NCBI GenBank assembly: GCA_016187485.1
Contig: JACPJO010000005.1
Coordinates: forward strand, 226,385 to 290,384
Direction of reading: 5' to 3'
Length of the DNA: 64,000 bases
From: Candidatus Uhrbacteria bacterium
Lineage (GTDB): Bacteria > Patescibacteriota > Patescibacteriia > UBA9934 > UBA10169
Below, piece by piece: positions 3,679 to 11,576 of this stretch. The notes under the pieces are model-generated. The model ran no database searches. It had not been told where the DNA came from and saw nothing but the letters and a program-made list of their open reading frames with translations. Position 1 is the stretch's first letter, and each line of letters starts with the position of its first letter. The position numbers were made by a program, and so were the translations under genes.

Positions 3679-4881
3679 ATGAATACTCCTTCTCCATTTA
3701 TAGGAAAAACGGTCGGCGTTTTTTTTGGAGGAAAAAGTCCGGAACATGACGTTTCTATTATCACTGGGCTTTTGGTTTTAGATGAATTGGCAAAACTTGG
3801 AATCTTAAGTGAGCCGATTTACATAGGAACAGATGGCGCGTGGTGTATGGGTCAGCTGTTACGAGAAAGAAGCTTTCTCCAAGGTATCCATTCTCACGAT
3901 TTATACCCTCTTCAAAGGTGGTCGTTGGATACCCGCCACCGCACACCACGGCTTATTTTGACACGAAGGCCATCTTTTCTCTCACGCCGAGAGCAAAAGA
4001 TCATTGACATTGCCTTCCCCGTGTTCCACGGGGCATACGGTGAGGATGGTTGCTTCCAGGGACTTTGCGAAACTCTAGGCGTGCCCTACGTGGGTTGCGG
4101 CGTTGAGGGAAGCGCCATCGCAATGAATAAGATTCTTACAAAACAGTTTTTTCAGCAGCACGGGGTACAAACCACGCCCTTCGTCGGTTTCTCCGAAGCG
4201 GACTGGAAGTCAGACGCAAACTCCATCAAACGAAGGATCAATGAGACACTGACTTTCCCGGTTTTTGTGAAGCCATCGCATGCGGGCTCGTCTATTGGCA
4301 TTTCACGAGTAAAAAAACTTGAGGCTATAGAGGAGGCAATAGAGGCATCCTTTGAATTTGATACTCATTGCGTTATTGAAAGCGGTATTTCTCCGGTTCG
4401 CGACTTGACATGTTGTGTAAGAGAGTGTGCGAGTAGCTCTCCCAAAGCGTCGCTCGTTCAAGACTCCAGTTTTGGAAAAAGTGAGTTTTTTACGTACAAA
4501 GAGAAATACTTGCAAAGCGACGGCACTCATCTGGACGGAGCAGGAGAAAGTTTCACTATTCCCGCAGAGATACCTGTGGCAACCTCTAAAAATATCCAGG
4601 AGACTTCCGTTGCGATATTTAAAGAGCTCGGCCTCTCGGGAATTTCGCGAGTTGACTTCTTGTATAACCCAGAGACGTCCCAGCTCTATGCAAACGAGAT
4701 CAACCCGATGCCAGGAACACTCTACGAGCATCTGTGGAAGAAGAGTGGTGTCGAACCGAAAGAACTTATTTTAGATTTACTCGATGTTGCGATTCGTAAA
4801 CACACGGAAACCATTAAGAAGAACAAATACTTCCATTCACCGCTCTTATCAGATATGCAAGGACAAAAACTTTCTAAGTAG
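3679..4881 (+). CDS. ddl: D-alanine--D-alanine ligase
   Basis: N-terminal VGVFFGGKSPEHDVSIITG and ATP-grasp motifs (FVKPSHAGSSIGISRV, EINPMPG); Ddl-like over the full length, with one variable insertion. Confidence 0.85.
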   Translation: MNTPSPFIGKTVGVFFGGKSPEHDVSIITGLLVLDELAKLGILSEPIYIGTDGAWCMGQLLRERSFLQGIHSHDLYPLQRWSLDTRHRTPRLILTRRPSFLSRREQKIIDIAFPVFHGAYGEDGCFQGLCETLGVPYVGCGVEGSAIAMNKILTKQFFQQHGVQTTPFVGFSEADWKSDANSIKRRINETLTFPVFVKPSHAGSSIGISRVKKLEAIEEAIEASFEFDTHCVIESGISPVRDLTCCVRECASSSPKASLVQDSSFGKSEFFTYKEKYLQSDGTHLDGAGESFTIPAEIPVATSKNIQETSVAIFKELGLSGISRVDFLYNPETSQLYANEINPMPGTLYEHLWKKSGVEPKELILDLLDVAIRKHTETIKKNKYFHSPLLSDMQGQKLSK

Positions 4882-4898
4882 CCAAGTGAGCTTCCTAA

Positions 4899-4920
4899 CA
4901 AACATTCAATTGAATGTTTG
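4899..4920. repeat. perfect 22-bp palindrome caaacattcaattgaatgtttg, followed by a strong Shine-Dalgarno sequence and an ATG-GAG-TAA mini-ORF
   Basis: Read directly from the sequence; sits between the convergent ddl and Nudix genes. Confidence 0.5.
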
Positions 4921-4946
4921 GGGAGAGGTTAAAATGGAGTAAAACA

Positions 4947-5003
4947 AAGTTAACTATTCGCTTATTCGCACGAATTAGAGAAGGATGGACGTTTTTTCGA
5001 GAG
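4947..5003 (-). repeat. junction/leader repeat copy 1 (orphan, no downstream gene); overlaps the last codons and stop of the Nudix gene
   Basis: gttaactattcgcttattcgcacgaattagag...ttttttcgagag aligns with the copies at 7575-7633 and 9352-9414. Confidence 0.7.
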
Positions 5004-5508
5004 CCGCTAGCGCCAGAAGCCCTGTTGTCGTATCAGTAAGATCCCCCGTAGCAAGGTGATTGCGAAATTCGTCGACCGGCATGAGAATCACATCGATCTT
5101 TTCGTCTTCATCTGTATGAGGTTCTGTTACTTTCCGGCAATGGGTCGCAAGAAAATGATATCGTCGACAAGTTGAGTATGCACAATCCCATGTTGAACCC
5201 ACGAGGACGAGATCTCCTTCGTAACCTGTCTCTTCTAAAAGCTCACGACGCATGGCTTGGAGAGGCTCTTCCCCCACATTCATACCACCGCCAGGAAGTT
5301 CGCGTAAAATACTCCCGGGTCCTGGACGAAATTGCGCGGCGAGAACAGCGTGTCCATCTTCCGTAATAGGAAGACTACAGACCGTATTGCCCTCCAGTTT
5401 TACATCAATGTCTATCTCACGATCATCATCACACCGATACGTCCGCCGTTCGATTTTCCGATACCCATCATAAACAAGTTTCTTCGATACGAGTTCCCAT
5501 GGTTTCAT
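4975..5508 (-). CDS. Nudix hydrolase
   Basis: Nudix box GGGMNVGEEPLQAMRRELLEETGYEG. Start placed at the internal Met (MKPWELV) because the track's longer ORF (to 5631) runs through tRNA-Ala. Confidence 0.7.
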   Translation of the reverse strand: MKPWELVSKKLVYDGYRKIERRTYRCDDDREIDIDVKLEGNTVCSLPITEDGHAVLAAQFRPGPGSILRELPGGGMNVGEEPLQAMRRELLEETGYEGDLVLVGSTWDCAYSTCRRYHFLATHCRKVTEPHTDEDEKIDVILMPVDEFRNHLATGDLTDTTTGLLALAALEKTSILL

Positions 5509-5601
5509 AGCCGCTCTAGGATACACCCATTCGTGCACAAACCAAACCCCGCCCTTCGCGAAGGGCGGGGTTGGCGGTCTCGGGCGAAATCTTTCGATCT
5601 C

Positions 5602-5678
5602 TGGTGGACCTGACCGGGGTCGAACCGGCAACTCTAGGTGGCAACCATAGCGAGGTTACCGATTACCTCTACAGGCCC
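5602..5678 (-). tRNA. tRNA-Ala (anticodon UGC; G3:U70 and A73 identity elements; non-canonical anticodon-loop context)
   Basis: Minus-strand reading GGGCCTGTAGAGGTAATCGGTAACCTCGCTATGGTTGCCACCTAGAGTTGCCGGTTCGACCCCGGTCAGGTCCACCA: 7-bp acceptor stem with G3:U70, T-loop TTCGACC, encoded CCA. Confidence 0.75.
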
Positions 5679-5788
5679 GTACCCGAGGTAAAAATAAATA
5701 CAACTCTACTCATGAAGAGGGAGAGTTGTATCTTGCCACCTAGTTGAGCCCTTTGGGCTTCACCCAAAGACCTCGCTACGGTATCCCT

Positions 5789-5817
5789 ATTTCACCATAC
5801 TTTTTCTCTTCTGTCAA
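5789..5817 (-). promoter_or_regulatory. putative sigma70 promoter for tRNA-Ala (TTGACA-N17-TGAAAT, with TGg upstream of the -10)
   Basis: Minus-strand ttgacagaagagaaaaagtatggtgaaat about 100 nt upstream of the mature tRNA 5' end; same architecture as the promoter at 30310-30338. Confidence 0.4.
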
Positions 5818-5834
5818 CCGATTCTGGGGAAAAG

Positions 5835-7574
5835 TCATCCGTTTTTCTCGAGATACGCCAGATAACAATCACGACACAGAATACGTCGGTTTGGGTACCT
5901 ACGGCAAACAGTTACAAGAAGCGGCTTGCTACATTTTGTACACACGCGATTCTCAAACTGCGCGATTTGCGCTGACCACGACATCTGCTGCATACGTGGA
6001 ATAAAGTGCTCGCCGGGTGGAGCAATCCTCCATTTTCGGTAGTGCTCAACTTCCGGCTTCAAGAAGGAGAACGCACGCTTTGCCTGCTCGTCATAGATCG
6101 GAACGCCAATCCATGCGTCCGTGAGATCATCAATATTGTCGGGAATGTCCGCTAATTGGCGCGTCTTAGACATATCGTATCGATCGACACCCGTTGCACC
6201 CGCGTCTGTCGGAAGAAATTGGTTACCTCCAAGGATGCGTAGATCTTCTTCTGTGGAGCCTGCATACAACACCGAGCCAGACTCGGGAATGTACGAGGAG
6301 GAAAATGTCGTTGGGAAAATAGATCCGTATGTACCCTCGTCCATCATCGCGCACTCCATTGCGTCCACCGTCTTCCAGTACTCCTCTTCCGTGTACGGTT
6401 TGTTCAGAATGTGAAACTCCTTGTGCGCCAGACCGACGCATCCAAAACAGTTTCGACAATCGCGGCAGACCATGCAGTATTCGCTGTCCTCGCAACGCAC
6501 GGAACGATAACAAAACTTGAGACGATTCGAATCTGGACACGTTTCCACGCTGTAACTCTCATTCGTATTCACAGCTCCCCACGCATACGCGTTGCCTTGC
6601 GAAGCGCCGTATAACCATGCAGAGCGAAAATTATCCACGGCCGTGTCTTCCGAATCAAAGCAGAAATGACATCGTGTCGCGTTGTGGAGATAGTCTCCCG
6701 TTGCATCTGTCCCGCCGACGTTAAAGTTTTCGGGCCAAAAGGCGTGTGTAAGCAGCAGTTCGTCGAATCGCTTTGACCATTCATCAACAATCGAGCGCTT
6801 TCCAAGATCGATCGCCGCTATACGAGCTCGATACTCTCCTTCGGAAAGCTGTTCATTCATGAATAAAAACTTTCGATTCCGTTTGTTCGTGGCGCCAAAA
6901 CAGTGTTCGCAATTTCGGCAGTCAAAGAGAAAGGCTGACTCGAGACAGTCCTGTGATTCGCGCGCGTACCGACAACGATACATGCGATGAGAATGTGAAA
7001 TGTGGTGTGATTCTTTCACGCCAGAGGAAAGGTACACGACCGAGGAATCTTCCGTGTCCATGGCACCGACACCGAAAAACGTGCGTTTGCTCTGACATGC
7101 AAAAACAAAATAACTGTTCTGATCTCCAAAGGAGAGGAGTGCCAGTGAGTTTTCTGGCGGTACGATGTTTGCGGTTGCAAAAAACGGTACGCGGAGTTCG
7201 AGCGCACGCAGTTGTTCGAAAAATGGTTTCGAGAGGTCAAGCGTTTCATGGGTATTCGAAAAATCCTGCTCATACCATTCGGCATCGGGCAGCACGCGGA
7301 TGCCGGAGGCTGGGTGATGAAAGGAGAGGATAGGTTCCCCCGTTCGCGCATGTTTGTTCCACCAAAATTGAAAACCGATATCAAAATACCCTGCCCATTT
7401 CCATCGCGTATTCGGCGACAACTCCGACGGCGGGACATTAAACTTCTTGTACCACCCGATTTCCTCCTCGGTCATCATCCATTTCTCGCCCGTCAAAGCA
7501 CACACCCGCTCACCGAGTTTTGCGGCGTCGAGGACGGCTTTTACCTTCAAATCGTAGTTGGGAGTTTTACTCAT
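5835..7574 (-). CDS. Cys-rich protein of unknown function, paralog B (579 aa)
   Basis: Long ORF with repeated C-x2-C-x2-C-FG modules (DCRNCEHCFGATNKRN..., CMVCRDCRNCFGCVGL) and a C-terminal CxxC...CxxC zinc-ribbon-like end. About 50% aa identity to the upstream paralog, with nearly identical N- and C-termini. No recognisable enzyme motif. Confidence 0.6.
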   Translation of the reverse strand: MSKTPNYDLKVKAVLDAAKLGERVCALTGEKWMMTEEEIGWYKKFNVPPSELSPNTRWKWAGYFDIGFQFWWNKHARTGEPILSFHHPASGIRVLPDAEWYEQDFSNTHETLDLSKPFFEQLRALELRVPFFATANIVPPENSLALLSFGDQNSYFVFACQSKRTFFGVGAMDTEDSSVVYLSSGVKESHHISHSHRMYRCRYARESQDCLESAFLFDCRNCEHCFGATNKRNRKFLFMNEQLSEGEYRARIAAIDLGKRSIVDEWSKRFDELLLTHAFWPENFNVGGTDATGDYLHNATRCHFCFDSEDTAVDNFRSAWLYGASQGNAYAWGAVNTNESYSVETCPDSNRLKFCYRSVRCEDSEYCMVCRDCRNCFGCVGLAHKEFHILNKPYTEEEYWKTVDAMECAMMDEGTYGSIFPTTFSSSYIPESGSVLYAGSTEEDLRILGGNQFLPTDAGATGVDRYDMSKTRQLADIPDNIDDLTDAWIGVPIYDEQAKRAFSFLKPEVEHYRKWRIAPPGEHFIPRMQQMSWSAQIAQFENRVCTKCSKPLLVTVCRRYPNRRILCRDCYLAYLEKNG

Positions 7575-7633
7575 AATGTAACTATTCTCTTATTCTCACG
7601 AATTAGCCGAGTTAGCTGTTCTTTTCGAGATAC
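7575..7633 (-). repeat. junction/leader repeat copy 2: covers the stop region of paralog A and the 5' leader of paralog B
   Basis: gtaactattctcttattctcacgaattag...ttcttttcgagatac; contains the imperfect palindrome ctaattcgtgagaatag, which ends 4 nt before the start codon. Confidence 0.7.
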
Positions 7634-9351
7634 TCCAGATAGCACGGCCTGCAATAGATCGTTCTCTTCCGGTACGTCTGGTTAATTGTTACAAGCAGGG
7701 CCTTCGCGCACTTGCCACACGTCGTTTCTTTCCATACCTCGGAGTTTGCTTCCCTCCAGAAAGAGTAGACGCGGTCAATGAAATGACTCGTGGGAGGCGC
7801 AAGACGGTGCTTGCGGTAGAAATCAAGCTCGGGTTTGAGGTAGGAAAAACGTCGTTTGATGTTCGCGTCGTAGATCGGAACACCAAGCCAGTCCTCATCC
7901 TTCATGTCGTCAATGCAATCCGGAACGTCGTTTGTGCTACGTAACTTGCTCTCGTCAATCTCTCCAACAGCACCACCTGACTCCGGCTCAAAATCCAAAG
8001 GATGAAAGTCCTCGTTCCTTGCTGCCGTTTCCGGATACTGCACAACACCACCGTCCGGCCAGTAACCGACGAAAAAGCTCGCGGGAAAAAACATCCCATA
8101 CTCCCCTCGCTCAAGCATCGCCACTTTCACTTCGTCAAGTTTGGCGTAGTACTCCTCTTCCGTGTACTGCTTGTTGAAAAGGCAAAATCGTTTTCGCTGA
8201 AGTCCGAAGCATCCAAAACAATCTTCACAGTTGTAACAGTAGTAACAATACTCGACGCTCTGGCAATCCTGAATAGAGTACGAAAACGCACACTTCGCGC
8301 AGCGTGGGGCGATATTGCAAAGATAGATCTCACTCGCACTCATCGGTGCGCCAGAGAACGCACAGGCAGAACACTCCCCGTACGGATAGGAGACGTGATA
8401 GAGGTCTCGATACGGACCGTTCATGCCAGCAAAGACGAACTTGCAGTCCACGGCGTTAACCATGTACTCACCGATGACATCGGTACATTTTTCATTAAAG
8501 TTCTCTGGCCATACTGTATTCCTTTCCATGAGATCAAGGAATCGCGCCTTGTATTTCTCGAGTTCCGACCGTCGAGAGAGATCAACTTCCGCAAGGCGTT
8601 TTTCGTACTCGCTTTTTGAGAGTTGCTCATTGAACCAGAGGTACTGTTTATTGCGCTTGTTCGTTGCTCCAAAACATTTTTGGCAGTTGCGGCAGTCAAA
8701 AAGAAAGAGTGAATCGATGCAATCAAAACAGATGTGCGCAAACTTACAGTTGTGCATGCGGTGAGACTGCAAGATACGAAACGAGGAACTTATATTACTC
8801 CCGGCCGATGACTCGGCTGAATCTTCGAGCATGTAGGTATCGGTACTGTAAAAACTGTTCTTCGACTTGCACGCGCAGACGAAGTAACTGTTCACGTCAC
8901 CGATGGAGGAGATCGTAATGGAGTTGTGCGGCTGTTCGATGTTGCGCGAGGCAGGATAAGGGATTTTCAGCTGAAGCTCGCGCATCTGTTCAAAGAAGGA
9001 ACGCTCGAGATGGATAACGTCCTGAACAATGTGTGAAAAGTCTTCCCCAAACCATTCCTCGTCAGGAAGCGTCTGCAAACCGGTGGACGGATGGACCGTC
9101 GAGACAAACCGCTTCCCTGTCTTTGGGTGCGTGCGATACCAAAATTGATACATCTCAAAATACCCTACGACTTCTTTCATCCTCGTTTCCGGCGACCACG
9201 GATGCGGTGGCACATTGAACTTCTTGTACCACCCAATTTCCTCCTCCGTCATCTCCCATTTCTCCCCCGTCAACGCACAAACTCGCTCGCCTGGTTGTAC
9301 AGTATCGAGAATCGCTTTTACTTTGGCATCGTAGTTGGGAGTTTTGCTCAC
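7612..9351 (-). CDS. Cys-rich protein of unknown function, paralog A (579 aa, GTG start)
   Basis: Same architecture as paralog B (DCRNCQKCFGATNKRN..., CYYCYNCEDCFGCFGL, C-terminal CGKCAK...CRPCY). The first ~40 codons and the 5' leader are about 85% identical at DNA level to paralog B. Confidence 0.6.
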   Translation of the reverse strand: MSKTPNYDAKVKAILDTVQPGERVCALTGEKWEMTEEEIGWYKKFNVPPHPWSPETRMKEVVGYFEMYQFWYRTHPKTGKRFVSTVHPSTGLQTLPDEEWFGEDFSHIVQDVIHLERSFFEQMRELQLKIPYPASRNIEQPHNSITISSIGDVNSYFVCACKSKNSFYSTDTYMLEDSAESSAGSNISSSFRILQSHRMHNCKFAHICFDCIDSLFLFDCRNCQKCFGATNKRNKQYLWFNEQLSKSEYEKRLAEVDLSRRSELEKYKARFLDLMERNTVWPENFNEKCTDVIGEYMVNAVDCKFVFAGMNGPYRDLYHVSYPYGECSACAFSGAPMSASEIYLCNIAPRCAKCAFSYSIQDCQSVEYCYYCYNCEDCFGCFGLQRKRFCLFNKQYTEEEYYAKLDEVKVAMLERGEYGMFFPASFFVGYWPDGGVVQYPETAARNEDFHPLDFEPESGGAVGEIDESKLRSTNDVPDCIDDMKDEDWLGVPIYDANIKRRFSYLKPELDFYRKHRLAPPTSHFIDRVYSFWREANSEVWKETTCGKCAKALLVTINQTYRKRTIYCRPCYLEYLEKNS

Positions 9352-9414
9352 AAAGTAACTATTCGCCTATTCGCGCGAATTAGAGAAGACGGTTAGCCGT
9401 TCTGTTCGAGATAC
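9352..9414 (-). repeat. junction/leader repeat copy 3 (contains the perfect palindrome attcgcgcgaat)
   Basis: gtaactattcgcctattcgcgcgaattagag...ttctgttcgagatac immediately upstream of the paralog A start. Confidence 0.7.
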
Positions 9415-9461
9415 GCGAGATAGAAAGTATGAAACAGAATACGCCTATCTTGGCTTACGCA
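9393..9461 (-). pseudogene. relic C-terminal fragment of a third Cys-rich paralog
   Basis: Minus-strand frame gives (TGA stop) CVSQDRRILFHTFYLAYLEQNG*; compare the paralog B end CRRYPNRRILCRDCYLAYLEKNG*. No upstream body is present. Confidence 0.55.
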
Positions 9462-9483
9462 TCAATTTCTGGAGAAAAGTCTC

Positions 9484-10917
9484 TCATTTTAGTTCCCTCG
9501 CCGCTTTGGCAAATGCCTCGCCGAGTTGTTTAGCAGCTGACGTATCGCTGTAGCCCAACGCCGGAGAGAAAATGACAGCATCGGCACTTGTGGCCGCCTG
9601 ACTCGCCGTCACAACGGCATCTGGCATATTTTCTGCACGCAGTATTTTGACCTCCTCAGTTTTTCCCATCACATGCTCAAACGCATCGCTCCCCGCTCCC
9701 GGCAACAAGACAACACTCTTACACACCAGCTTGCACACCTTTGCGAGCTCGTCGAGGTTCCCTTCCTTTACGTCTCCACCGGAAATCAAATGAATCGAAC
9801 GCCCGCGTTCGCCAAATCGGCGCAGAACATTTGTCGTCGCTTCGGCCGAGGACCCAAGCGCATCGTTCACATAGATCACCCCCGACACATCAGTGACAAT
9901 CTCTTGGCGATCATCTTCAGAAGAAAACGCTTTCACAACTTCCGCGCAAGATGCATTCTCCACGCTGTAAAGTTTTGCAACCGCAATCGCCGCAAGCACA
10001 TTACGCACATTATCGTCGCCTTCGAGATGAATGTTAGAGACAGGCATGATGATGTCATTCAAAGAGGTGACGTTCCCATCCTTCACACACACCCCCTCCT
10101 TCCCTTCCAGCAGTAAGAGCGAAAACCAAACGACGCGTCCTGGTGCTTTCTCTGCTAATCCTCTTACTTGATCTTGATCAGCATTCAACACGGCAATGCC
10201 ATCCTTTCCCCCTTTTGCAAACACCCCAACCTTTGATGCCGCATACGCCTCCATCGACGCATAGCGATGTAAGTGATCGGCATACATGTTGGTCAACACC
10301 CCGACCTCTGGCCCACGATCAAGATGATCGAGACTCTCAAGCAACCAGGACGACAACTCAAGCACAATCGGCGCGGGTTCTTTCCATGCAAGAATCTCGT
10401 CCAAATATTCAAGTGGCGACACGCGCATGTTTCCCGCCACAATCGTTTGAGGATTCTTCTTTTTTAGAAGTTCGCCGATCAATGCCGTCGTGGTCGTCTT
10501 GCCACGCGCCCCGGTAACACCGATCACCGGATACGGACAAAACTGAAAAAATAAACTCACATCTGATTCCACCGGCACCCTATGCGCATACGCCATCTTC
10601 ACCCACGGCGAATCATGCGGCACATCGGGATTCGTGATGACAAGCGCCACATCCGTGAAATCCTCTTCACGATGTTCGCCCAGCACAAAAATCGGGTGGT
10701 ACAACTCCCGGTCGGGAAGTGTTTGGCGATATTCTTCAAACCACCGTGTAACTTCATCCACCGATTCACGAAGCTCCTCGTTCGTTCGATGATCGGTAAT
10801 CACCACTTGCGCGCCATGACGGATGAGCCACTTTGTTGCGCCTACGCCGCTTCCGCGTTTTAAGCGACCAAGCCCCATGACCGTCACAACAGCATCTTGA
10901 ATATTGGAGACCTCCAT
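9484..10917 (-). CDS. murD: UDP-N-acetylmuramoylalanine--D-glutamate ligase (MurD)
   Basis: Start placed at MEVSNIQDAVVTVMGLGRLKRGSGVGATKWL (MurD N-terminal Rossmann-like domain); Mur ligase P-loop GVTGARGKTTTTALIG. The track's N-terminal extension overlaps the upstream GT2 gene. Confidence 0.75.
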   Translation of the reverse strand: MEVSNIQDAVVTVMGLGRLKRGSGVGATKWLIRHGAQVVITDHRTNEELRESVDEVTRWFEEYRQTLPDRELYHPIFVLGEHREEDFTDVALVITNPDVPHDSPWVKMAYAHRVPVESDVSLFFQFCPYPVIGVTGARGKTTTTALIGELLKKKNPQTIVAGNMRVSPLEYLDEILAWKEPAPIVLELSSWLLESLDHLDRGPEVGVLTNMYADHLHRYASMEAYAASKVGVFAKGGKDGIAVLNADQDQVRGLAEKAPGRVVWFSLLLLEGKEGVCVKDGNVTSLNDIIMPVSNIHLEGDDNVRNVLAAIAVAKLYSVENASCAEVVKAFSSEDDRQEIVTDVSGVIYVNDALGSSAEATTNVLRRFGERGRSIHLISGGDVKEGNLDELAKVCKLVCKSVVLLPGAGSDAFEHVMGKTEEVKILRAENMPDAVVTASQAATSADAVIFSPALGYSDTSAAKQLGEAFAKAARELK

Positions 10918-10931
10918 AAAACAGAAGCATT

Positions 10932-11576
10932 TTACCTCTTGTGCCAAGAAGATGCCACCAACGCTCCGGCCACTTGGCCCCACATGCGCACATACTGCCA
11001 TAGTCCGCGCCGCCACCCGACCTTCGCCACTTTTGTCCGGATACGCACACCCGTAAGGAGAATCGCTTGTATTCTCCCTCCTTTTTCCCGACATAATGCG
11101 TTGAGAGCAATCTCCACACGATACCCCGAGAGCTGTCCAGACGGGCACGAGAGGAAAAGGGTGCGCGACAGACATCGTTCCCCGCTCACAAGGGGGAGAA
11201 GACGCATAAGCGCAACCAGCAAGGCTCCGCGATCCCGGAGCCCCACACTCATCACGGCTTGCCCTCGCTCCACGGGCTCAAAAAGTTTTTGCACGTGTTC
11301 ATGGGTGATACCGTAGATATCCGCATCCAAAAACATGACAAATGCCGTGTGCGCTGCCTCGACCCCCACACACATGGCGTGTCCCTTTCCTCCGCGGGCC
11401 AAAAGCTCAATCACGCGGGCGCCAGCCATATGAGCCCTTTGCACTGTCCTGTCCGTTGAACCATCCGAGACAACTAAAACTTCCTCCACAAGCGGAGCAT
11501 TCTTTACTGCCGCCGCAACATCCCCAACGGTAGCTTCTTCATTGTAGGCAGGAATGACGATGGTGAGAGATTTCAT
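10932..11576 (-). CDS. family 2 glycosyltransferase
   Basis: MKSLTIVIPAYNEEATVGDV...VVSDGSTDRT...FLDADI: the GT-A fold DxD region. Confidence 0.7.
   Translation of the reverse strand: MKSLTIVIPAYNEEATVGDVAAAVKNAPLVEEVLVVSDGSTDRTVQRAHMAGARVIELLARGGKGHAMCVGVEAAHTAFVMFLDADIYGITHEHVQKLFEPVERGQAVMSVGLRDRGALLVALMRLLPLVSGERCLSRTLFLSCPSGQLSGYRVEIALNALCREKGGRIQAILLTGVRIRTKVAKVGWRRGLWQYVRMWGQVAGALVASSWHKR

Follow-up and report, generated by a model that had tools for sequence, protein, structure and literature searches.

A conserved palindromic site at the start regions of two cysteine-rich genes of Candidatus Uhrbacteria, a probable operator of a small ArsR-family regulator

A pair of paralogous genes encoding cysteine-rich proteins (paralogs A and B) is located on the minus strand of a 64-kb stretch of DNA (the window) from a Candidatus Uhrbacteria bacterium, upstream of a tRNA-Ala gene and a gene encoding a NUDIX hydrolase (Table 1). 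A repeated sequence is associated with these genes. The 28-nt pattern CTAATTCGYGMGAATARGMGAATAGTTA matches the window at exactly three sites, each of them on the minus strand (4951-4978, 7579-7606 and 9356-9383); none is expected by chance (100 shuffles of the window). Sub-patterns shorter than 28 nt return the same three sites, and all copies are confined to 4.5 kb. Of the 25 core bases, 21 are shared by copies 2 and 3, and 23 by copies 1 and 3. The core contains the palindrome ATTCGCGCGAAT, which is perfect in copy 3, followed by two direct G(C/A)GAATAG units. The original prediction had described three minus-strand copies of a leader repeat of about 58 nt with a palindromic core and direct repeats, and the three copies, the palindrome and the direct repeats are borne out.

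The same prediction placed each copy directly before a paralog start codon, with no Shine-Dalgarno sequence. This placement is correct for copies 2 and 3, in which the start codon (ATG at 7574 and GTG at 9351, respectively) follows the core after 7 nt and the sequence GTTAC after 3 nt. It fails for copy 1, which overlaps the TAA of the NUDIX gene and is followed only by a 13-codon TTG frame and no gene, because a convergent Ddl gene runs towards it. The sequence 3' of copy 1 shows no similarity to the paralog starts (equalled by 540 and 1552 of 2000 shuffles). Copy 1 was also considered as the mark of a deleted paralog 5' end or of a deleted ArsR gene 3' end and, with no significant similarity found, neither was accepted.

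The unit of about 58 nt, which had been treated as a single repeat, is composite in all three copies. Its 5' part is a real or decayed 3' end of a cysteine-rich paralog and is a by-product of tandem duplication, and its 3' part is the 25-nt core CTAATTCGCGCGAATAGGCGAATAG. In copy 2, the segment 5' of the core is the genuine 3' end of a paralog. In copy 3, it is a decayed remnant (9393-9443) that shares 77% identity with positions 5834-5885 (repeat family D2) and has lost both cysteines of the terminal CxxC; none of 2000 shuffles scores as well. In copy 1, only a weak trace of about 22 nt is present. Copies 2 and 3 occupy equivalent places relative to the two paralogs, with a period of 1777 nt. 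The view that the tRNA-Ala and NUDIX genes form an insert between CTCGARAAAAACG direct repeats was not retained; its basis is the marginal paralog-trace match of copy 1 (10 of 2000 shuffles).

Table 1. Features of the repeat region (positions in the 64-kb window)
Feature	Position	Strand	Description
Core copy 1	4954..4978	-	CTAATTCGTGCGAATAAGCGAATAG; cTAA is the stop codon of the NUDIX gene
NUDIX hydrolase gene	4975..5508	-	Pfam NUDIX; stop codon within copy 1
Weak paralog 3'-end trace	4990..5010	-	CTAGCGGCTCTCGAAAAAACG compared with CTGGCGTATCTCGAGAAAAACG; within the last NUDIX codons; 10/2000 shuffles, marginal
tRNA-Ala(UGC)	5605..5678	-	Between paralog B and the NUDIX gene; context, outside the element
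Cys-rich paralog B	5835..7574	-	579 aa, 46% identical to A; no core after the stop codon
Core copy 2	7582..7606	-	CTAATTCGTGAGAATAAGAGAATAG; follows the paralog A stop codon TAA (7612-7614) and precedes the paralog B ATG (7574)
Last GAAT unit, copy 2	7584..7589	-	GAGAAT, 9 nt before ATG; candidate -10 hexamer of a putative leaderless mRNA
Cys-rich paralog A	7612..9351	-	579 aa, GTG start
Core copy 3	9359..9383	-	CTAATTCGCGCGAATAGGCGAATAG, identical to the consensus; 7 nt separate its end from the paralog A start codon (GTG)
Last GAAT unit, copy 3	9361..9366	-	GCGAAT, 9 nt before GTG; -10 position for a putative leaderless mRNA, poor match
Decayed 3' end of lost upstream paralog	9393..9443	-	Reads RILFHTFYLAYLEQNG*; 5' part of copy 3 as originally described

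The core is not confined to these three sites, contrary to part of what the original prediction had named as grounds for regarding it as a mere by-product of gene duplication. It was detected in at least 120 other, metagenome contigs, beside unrelated genes and in otherwise unrelated sequence. The information content is about zero outside positions -8 to +27, where the flanks share nothing. The site comprises the 25-nt core and, 5' of it, a weaker stretch of 8 nt (25-33 bp overall). It forms a 32-nt imperfect palindrome, with 13 of the 16 arm positions of the consensus being complementary. Within it, four ATTC/GAAT tetramers are arranged in a strict 8-bp register, two inverted and then two direct ([CTATTCTC][TAATTCGC][GCGAATAG][GCGAATAG]). 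The core of copy 3 is 100% identical to those in contigs L003 (at 5760) and L050 (at 1371), which lie beside proteins that are 35-54% identical to paralog A. No match to the motif was found in the viral contigs scanned.

A co-oriented gene is located downstream of the motif in about 77% of instances; such a gene is missing behind copy 1 and behind about 20% of the instances outside the window. The genes 3' of the motif have no common function and include those encoding TrpRS, Mur ligases, GreA, PGK and uracil-DNA glycosylase. The cysteine-rich genes are the second largest downstream family (12/123), including distant members in other lineages. In Uhrbacteria genomes, the motif is found at only about 7 of 168 paralog starts, and the others carry different palindromes. 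Some copies are located inside coding regions on either strand; copies there occur in the one open frame, with the reading SLIRANKRI. Five MiaA genes carry the motif on the antisense strand, and the peptide (I/V)RLF(A/S)RI(R/S) is conserved in all five. These copies were not counted as evidence, since the search was made by DNA pattern and the conserved peptide may partly be a selection artefact. Literature searches on the motif sequence, on ArsR proteins in Parcubacteria or Patescibacteria, on leaderless promoters in CPR (Patescibacteria) organisms and on cysteine-rich proteins of Uhrbacteria returned nothing relevant.

The largest family directly downstream of the motif (16/123) encodes an ArsR-family protein. 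The motif-linked regulator is a winged-helix protein (ArsR/HTH_5) of about 88 aa (86-91 aa) that matches the Pfam families HTH_5 (28.8 bits, cut-off 22) and HTH_20 (29 bits, cut-off 27). Its closest solved relatives in the PDB are HlyU (5.7e-13), CzrA (3e-9), NolR, PagR and SmtB, and CadC is also among the matches. At E <= 1e-8, the family comprises 4186 members. Where classical ArsR proteins have the CxC metal site, the regulator has SVGEIA (A3 alignment).

The linkage was tested independently of the motif at six regulator loci that were picked by protein identity only, with flanks of ±10 kb and a GC content of 38-56%. These loci belong to Zambryski-, Lloyd-, Nomura-, Colwell- and Liptonbacteria (Parcubacteria candidate lineages) and to one unassigned contig. 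The motif was found directly 3' of the regulator gene in all six loci, with 0-5 mismatches and often sharing the TAA of the regulator. An intact motif was also found directly 5' of the gene in five loci, and the copy at that place in the sixth (L207) is split at its centre. All 16 scan matches in the six loci lie within about 800 nt of the regulator gene, and none was found in the remaining 100 kb or so of flanks. In two relatives of the window organism that were found via the paralog (L197 and L025), the regulator gene lies inside or beside arrays of cysteine-rich genes, with the motif on its flanks. No homologue of the regulator was detected in the 64-kb window itself (best tblastn E = 0.16).

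Variants of the recognition helix occur together with variants of the site, in a correlation that is confounded by phylogeny. The helix LS(F/L)KSTSRHL (five loci) pairs with GTGAGAAT..GAGAAT, a variant seen at one of the flanking sites or at both, LSF(K/R)ATSKHL pairs with CG(C/T)GCGAAT, and the diverged regulator of Lloydbacteria pairs with CTAATTGTAGCGAATAGGGGGATAG, which is present in three copies.

The position of the core relative to the start codons would fit a role at the promoter. A Shine-Dalgarno-like sequence precedes only 6 of 43 long open reading frames of the window, so the absence of this sequence before 7574 and 9351, correctly noted in the original prediction, is a window-wide property and not specific to the cysteine-rich genes. 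Leaderless or near-leaderless expression is the probable reason for the missing Shine-Dalgarno sequences. Several genes of the window carry TAnnnT 6-9 nt before the ATG, and -10-like hexamers are found near the start codons of 6 of 43 genes, a modest enrichment of about 2-fold. Among the motif instances, TANAAT hexamers are enriched about 3-fold in the 35 nt after the motif. In 23 instances, TAGAAT occupies motif positions 17-22, usually within TGGTAGAAT, and an ATG follows 6-9 nt further. The ATG lies 3-9 nt past the core in 10 of 12 motif-linked cysteine-rich genes.

If the mRNAs are leaderless or nearly so, the site would overlap the -10 position of their promoters. Compared with TANNNT, the GAGAAT of copy 2 has the A at position 2 and the T at position 6 and lacks the T at position 1, and the GCGAAT of copies 1 and 3 has C at the normally essential position 2. 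If a promoter is located at the GCGAAT unit it would be weak; otherwise it would lie elsewhere. A sigma-70 consensus scan of positions 4800-9600 detected no promoter at the repeats. The same scan flagged copy 3 as terminator-like, with a weak 6-bp stem that was not credited.

The core is probably the operator of the small ArsR/SmtB-family winged-helix regulator in CPR bacteria of the Parcubacteria type, including Uhrbacteria. We infer binding from co-localisation, and the direction of regulation, the leaderless state of the mRNAs and the signal sensed are likewise inferred. The site sits on the start regions of both cysteine-rich paralogs, with its last unit, G(A/C)GAAT, at the usual -10 place of leaderless or near-leaderless genes of this organism. 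At this place, a bound regulator would occlude RNA polymerase and repress both paralogs through one site each, although activation instead of repression is possible. The operator function suggested in the original prediction is thus retained in an altered form: the site is not private to the cysteine-rich genes and precedes many different genes, most often the ArsR-family gene.

The three copies in the window probably arose by tandem duplication of a unit composed of operator and paralog, followed by partial deletion of the array. What the deletion left behind would be the stump of a paralog 3' end ahead of copy 3 and, past the NUDIX gene, copy 1 as an orphan operator. Copy 1, the instances without a co-oriented downstream gene (about 20%) and the copies in coding regions are not required by a simple promoter-operator model.

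The proposed pair resembles known systems in several respects. In the classical arrangement of ArsR/SmtB repressors, an imperfect inverted repeat is located on the repressor's own promoter region and on that of a neighbour; SmtB and CzrA have operators of the 12-2-12 type, and HlyU, NolR, PagR and BigR are non-metal members. The linked protein is a bona fide member of the family by its Pfam and PDB matches, and an imperfect inverted repeat is found at its own promoter region and at that of the neighbouring gene. Unlike the classical members, the protein is minimal and has no CxC at the alpha-3 site, and in place of the 12-2-12 repeat its presumed binding site consists of four ATTC/GAAT tetramers at 8-bp spacing, two inverted followed by two direct. 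The site is also nearly invariant over a very wide phylogenetic span and is found before functionally mixed genes, with some copies inside coding sequence.

The core may instead be itself a promoter, read by a housekeeping or alternative sigma factor for leaderless transcription, with the ArsR gene as one client of many. At both paralogs of the window, the distance from the last unit to the start codon is 9 nt, most instances have a co-oriented downstream gene, and the variant GAATGGTAGAATAG contains a canonical extended -10 element (TGnTAGAAT) with an ATG 6-9 nt after it. Promoters of leaderless mRNAs with an extended -10 element (TGnTAnAAT) occur in Actinobacteria and Deinococcus. The likeness extends to the absence of a Shine-Dalgarno sequence and to a hexamer located 6-9 nt upstream of the start codon, and the TGGTAGAAT variant fits that consensus exactly. 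The majority form GCGAAT, however, lacks the A at -11 and breaks this rule, so that the entire motif does not amount to a promoter consensus. Its 25 nearly invariant, dyad-symmetric bases far exceed the information needed by a sigma-70 or ECF promoter. Separate canonical -10 hexamers occur at variable distances of 0-35 nt after the motif, which is therefore not at a fixed promoter position. Copies are also found antisense to genes and, in convergent pairs, behind the final gene, and the clustering of 16 copies within 800 nt of one regulator gene is unexpected for a general promoter. A promoter identity of the core is accordingly considered unlikely.

The dispersed, palindromic nature of the core would also fit a selfish or structural repeat of the REP, MITE or RPE kind that has no dedicated regulatory role and of which the cysteine-rich array has merely collected copies. 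Tandem clusters occur (e.g., eight copies in 3.5 kb of L107), GC-rich inserts interrupt some copies at the centre, upstream genes often take their stop codons from the motif, and copies are translated in frame (SLIRANKRI). In these features the core resembles the REP/BIME-RAYT, Correia and RPE elements, which are short intergenic palindromes that at times supply stop codons or promoter parts and are occasionally translated in frame. Yet no transposase, RAYT or integrase was found in about 130 kb of flanks by called genes and Pfam, where the only such match was a faint one to TnsA_N in L107 (E = 7e-4, below its cut-off). In YchF and MurD, the embedded motif takes the place of native residues: alignment to homologues shows a length difference of no more than 1 aa, and the target is not duplicated. 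REP families are species-specific, whereas the core is kept across distant lineages with a GC content of 38 to 56%. Its density is low away from the regulator (three copies per 64 kb in the window and none in about 100 kb beyond 800 nt), and it flanks this one gene on the 3' side in all six test loci and on the 5' side in five intact copies and one split copy. A mobile repeat is thus quite improbable.

A related suggestion of the original prediction was a recombination or duplication junction of the attC or REP type. Its duplication part is upheld by the flanking paralog 3'-end segment, and the core itself lacks attC and REP traits and has no integrase or transposase nearby. Like integron attC sites, the core is a repeated site with inverted-repeat character between co-oriented array genes. 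However, attC sites measure 57-141 nt and conserve structure and RYYYAAC/GTTRRRY ends, whereas here a 25-nt sequence is conserved, no intI gene is present and the "cassettes" include tRNA and housekeeping genes. The possible attC ends (GCTAAC with GTTACT, GTTACA or GTTAAC) are unconserved among 160 instances, and an attC identity was rejected. No recombinase was found in the motif clusters of L107 and L197, and an integron or transposon reading was rejected on this basis. The junction repeat gives no grounds for proposing a cassette or recombination system.

It is very unlikely that the core acts as RNA, that is, as a 5'-UTR or intercistronic hairpin governing translation, processing or stability of the cysteine-rich mRNAs; a hairpin controlling translation had been offered in the original prediction beside the operator. 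The consensus 35-mer does fold as a hairpin (-9 kcal/mol, z = -2.2), the orientation of about 80% of instances matches that of their flanking genes and the site is placed between stop and start codons. The window copies, however, fold no better than shuffles (z = 0.05, -0.52 and -0.46), and copy 2 folds unlike the others. Over 216 instances, base pairs of the outer stem are retained in only 59-79% of cells with no compensatory covariation, and the "loop" bases are conserved as strongly as the "stem" bases. Moreover, leaderless mRNAs would not include most of the site. No Rfam family matched at the repeats, either in the whole window at the gathering threshold or in positions 4850-9500 at E <= 10.

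That the repeat is a mere functionless scar of tandem gene duplication, with the spacer copied along, fits the paralog 3' end in its 5' part and the 1777-nt period but is hardly credible, as the paralogs have diverged to 46% protein identity with many synonymous differences while the core kept 21-23 of 25 bases, and the core is identical in other genomes and beside unrelated genes.

The operator reading can be extended. The nearly invariant operator and the minimal ArsR-type regulator could form a module that is common to much of the CPR, spreads to promoters and into coding sequence (as SLIRANKRI) by a templated, conversion-like process instead of insertion and controls expanding arrays of genes for large cysteine-rich proteins in Uhrbacteria; this wider proposal is speculative and is put forward only tentatively.

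CPR organisms are largely uncultured and encode few transcription factors, and to our knowledge almost nothing is known about their gene regulation. The core and the linked protein provide a candidate regulator-operator pair for the CPR that is recognisable from sequence alone. The pair is small (an 88-aa protein and a 33-bp site), so it can be readily made and assayed in vitro, and its targets can be listed for each genome. For annotation, probable leaderless expression accounts for the cysteine-rich genes that lack a Shine-Dalgarno sequence. The pair also ties a strongly amplified and unexplained family of cysteine-rich proteins of about 579 aa to a defined candidate control circuit.

The triplicated ~58-nt repeat of the original prediction is real, since the 28-nt pattern CTAATTCGYGMGAATARGMGAATAGTTA has exactly three matches in 64 kb where none is expected by chance, yet its description was too narrow. 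At this locus the gene strand is the minus strand, and the order runs from a Mur ligase gene to a NUDIX gene, followed by a convergent Ddl gene.

Features around the three repeat copies, in minus-strand order
Feature	Position	Strand	Remark
Mur ligase gene	11175..9484	minus	first in order; 132-nt spacer to paralog A
Remnant of lost paralog	9443..9393	minus	5' of core, copy 3
28-nt pattern, copy 3	9383..9356	minus
Cys-rich paralog A	9351..7612	minus	GTG start, 579 aa; 37-nt spacer to paralog B
28-nt pattern, copy 2	7606..7579	minus
Cys-rich paralog B	7574..5835	minus	579 aa
Promoter-like TTGACA-17-TGAAAT		minus	3' of paralog B, 5' of tRNA-Ala(UGC)
tRNA-Ala(UGC)	5678..5605	minus
Strong terminator hairpin	5572..5545	minus	3' of tRNA-Ala(UGC)
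NUDIX gene	5508..4975	minus	93-nt spacer to Ddl, with palindromic terminator
28-nt pattern, copy 1	4978..4951	minus
Ddl gene	3679..4881	plus	convergent

In copy 2, the sequence 5' of the core (the 25-nt 3' part of the repeat) is the genuine 3' end of paralog A. The same part of copy 3 is the decayed 3' end of a lost paralog, which translates as RILFHTFYLAYLEQNG followed by a stop and shows 77% identity to the end of paralog B (0/2000 shuffles score as well), and in copy 1 it is at most a 22-nt paralog-end trace within the last NUDIX codons (10/2000 shuffles score as well). These genuine, decayed and trace ends indicate that the outer part of the repeat is best read as a by-product of tandem duplication and subsequent partial deletion of the array. 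The earlier reading as a duplication junction thus holds for the outer part and fails for the core, which is conserved beyond the paralogs' protein identity of only 46% (21/25 identical bases between copies 2 and 3, and 23/25 between copies 1 and 3). The claim that every copy precedes a paralog start fails for copy 1, which has no paralog downstream and is followed by sequence without similarity to paralog starts in a shuffle comparison. The tRNA-Ala(UGC) gene has an Rfam score of 35 bits and was missed by default filters. In the region 5605-5830 (minus strand), its leader extends ~110 nt after TTGACA-17-TGAAAT and contains segments that seem, by eye only, complementary to the D and anticodon-arm region of the tRNA.

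The core was scanned at up to six mismatches in 646 kb of genomic loci collected via the Cys-rich protein, which yielded 10 occurrences, every one on the gene strand. It precedes paralogs in L003, L025, L041, L050 and L074 (L-numbers denote comparison loci from other genomes or metagenomes), and also lies 3' of a paralog with nothing after it in L003 (at 5760) and L046 (at 5779). Three copies, each from a different genome, are 100% identical. At least 120 metagenome contigs were positive for CTAATTCGYKMGAATRRKMGAAYAR, with up to eight copies in 3.5 kb on some contigs among the matches listed, and none was found in the viral contigs scanned. The flanks of 160 distinct instances among the matches listed have nothing in common; information content is high only from ~-8 to +27, with the consensus tcTATTCT CTAATTCGCGCGAATAGGCGAATAG tt. 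In this consensus an ATTC/GAAT tetramer occurs four times at an exact 8-bp spacing; the first two units are inverted, the last two direct, and the four make up a 32-nt imperfect palindrome. By crude ORF calls on these listed instances, 133/160 are intergenic, the gene 5' of the motif is co-oriented in 94 cases versus 21, the gene 3' of it in 96 versus 28, and the next ORF starts -1 to 9 nt from the core end in 24/96 cases. The motif's own TAA or TAG is often the stop codon of the preceding ORF. No gene lies behind the motif in copy 1 or in roughly one instance in five overall, and no common theme was found among the genes 3' of it. In L107 (1987-2330), a TATAAT hexamer and a SAM riboswitch (Rfam, 48.4 bits) are immediately preceded by three copies, whose spacing is 71 and 80 nt and whose spacers resemble one another.

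The ORFs directly 3' of the motif were clustered into families (n=123, among the matches listed). The largest family (16/123) is an 86-91-aa ArsR-family winged-helix protein, and the second largest (12/123) is the Cys-rich family of the paralogs, which includes distant members from other lineages. The regulator matches Pfam HTH_5 and HTH_20 above cut-offs, has HlyU, CzrA, NolR, PagR, CadC and SmtB as its closest solved relatives, and lacks, in the family alignment, the CxC motif of metal-sensing ArsR proteins. The family comprises 4186 members at E <= 1e-8, and its named sources include Zambryski-, Lloyd-, Nomura-, Colwell- and Liptonbacteria, Minisyncoccia and Paceibacterota. In an independent test, six regulator genes were chosen by protein identity only, with 10-kb flanks. 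The motif (0-5 mismatches) was present directly 3' of the regulator gene in 6/6 loci, its cTAA often being the regulator stop codon, and an intact motif was also present directly 5' of the gene in 5/6; in the sixth, L207, the pre-gene site is a centre-split copy outside the mismatch-scan count. All 16 scan matches lie within ~800 nt of the regulator, with none elsewhere in the 10-kb flanks of the six loci. The Lloydbacteria locus carries a diverged regulator with three copies of a diverged motif, CTAATTGTAGCGAATAGGGGGATAG. Where the recognition helix is ..KSTSRHL, one or both flanking sites are of the GTGAGAAT..GAGAAT variant; ..KATSKHL or ..RATSKHL helices accompany CG(C/T)GCGAAT. This correlation is not phylogenetically independent. 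Two loci come from relatives of the window organism. In L197, which encodes a paralog 75% identical to paralog A, the regulator lies within the Cys-rich array, in the order paralog, site, HD hydrolase, site, regulator, split site and paralog. In UBA10169 (L025), the regulator comes after four tandem paralogs and has one site on either side. The regulator gene is absent from the 64-kb window.

SD-like sequences precede only 6/43 long ORFs in the window, and in several genes a TAnnnT hexamer stands 6-9 nt 5' of the ATG (e.g., starts 3002, 3149, 15330, 30264, 44582 and 61910), with modest positional enrichment near starts. These two features suggest that leaderless expression may be common in the organism. 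Among motif instances, the 35 nt 3' of the core show a ~3-fold enrichment of TANAAT hexamers, and in 23 further instances TAGAAT occupies core positions 17-22, usually inside TGGTAGAAT, a textbook extended -10, with ATG 6-9 nt later. In the window, copy 2 has GAGAAT and copy 3 has GCGAAT as the matching unit, 9 nt 5' of the start codon in both cases. The enrichment, the TAGAAT variant and the 9-nt spacing would place the site on or just 5' of the -10 position of putative leaderless or near-leaderless promoters, which would account for the missing Shine-Dalgarno sequence remarked on earlier before the paralogs. A repressor at the site would block initiation at the -10 position. That the motif is a promoter pure and simple is disfavoured by the excess of information in the site, its dyad symmetry, its variable distance to separate -10 hexamers and the lack of A at -11 in the majority form.

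The original prediction had offered an operator or an RNA hairpin. The operator is supported by the sites flanking the ArsR-family gene; the hairpin is not, as the window copies have no fold in common and none that beats shuffled sequence, 216 instances give no compensatory covariation, the 'loop' is conserved as much as the 'stem', and no Rfam family matches. Some motif copies are located inside coding regions, on the sense strand and in one open frame (SLIRANKRI), and occupy equal positions in diverged orthologs, e.g., of MnmA and a glycosylase-like protein. Coding copies occur in L086 and L186 (MnmA), L156 (YchF), L112 (MurD-like), L084 and L183. In MiaA genes (L164, L178, L093, L166 and L131) the motif is antisense to the peptide (I/V)RLF(A/S)RI(R/S); these five cases may be an artefact of a conserved peptide and a pattern-based search. 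In three copies (L197 4152-4197, L025 ~7585-7625 and L207 ~7685-7705), GC-rich inserts of 18-47 nt with gcctgcccg-type repeats in either orientation interrupt the motif exactly at its dyad centre; these inserts may represent a second small element targeting palindrome centres. A REP, MITE or attC identity of the motif itself, close to the attC/REP-like unit first proposed, is opposed by the lack of transposase and integrase in any flank examined, by a sequence kept across lineages of GC 38 to 56%, and by the YchF and MurD copies, which take the place of native residues and alter the protein length by one residue at most. A duplication scar only is contradicted by the wide distribution of the core and its linkage to the regulator.

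Paralogs A and B are members of a Cys-rich protein family (~578 aa) nearly confined to Candidatus Uhrbacteria and related Patescibacteria. The family is strongly amplified, with many, often tandem, paralogs per genome, including at least seven on one 17-kb contig (L197 1-15257) and four in tandem in UBA10169 (L025 275-7563). Many relatives have no spacer between the tandem genes, which overlap instead (ATGGCTAA). The protein has no Pfam family and no PDB relative by sequence, and its model (pLDDT 80.7) gave no Foldseek match in PDB. Other palindromes stand before the paralog ATG in other lineages; strong ones are directly 5' of it in other Uhrbacteria (L001, L004, L016; L008, L051, L063; L034, L050; L039, L018, L064), e.g., gacaggcgtaagcctgtc with gacacccttacgggtgtc, ccgtgaatagtgaccgaccggtcactattcacgg and attgtcacgtcgtgacaat, and could be either terminators or operators for other regulators. 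Another leader type (L004 ~5730-5812, L012, L036, L045, L060, L062, L071 and L197 ~7935-8000) consists of the first ~9 paralog codons (ATGTCnAAAACnCCnAAyTACGAC), a conserved ~52-nt element (atcccccttcgctcggacaagccgagctacggagggatttcgtcaaaattgt) and a second ATG, which opens the full paralog gene; this arrangement resembles a duplicated start or an upstream ORF. Several MAGs with this family (L001, L002, L005 and others) are titled 'uncultured Gammaproteobacteria bacterium', which looks like mislabelled taxonomy.

The functional part of the repeat probably serves as operator for a minimal, CPR-wide regulator of the ArsR family and sits on the start region of each Cys-rich paralog. No earlier description of the motif-regulator pair was found in the searchable literature; as a candidate operator and regulator, the pair falls within an already known sort of regulatory system.
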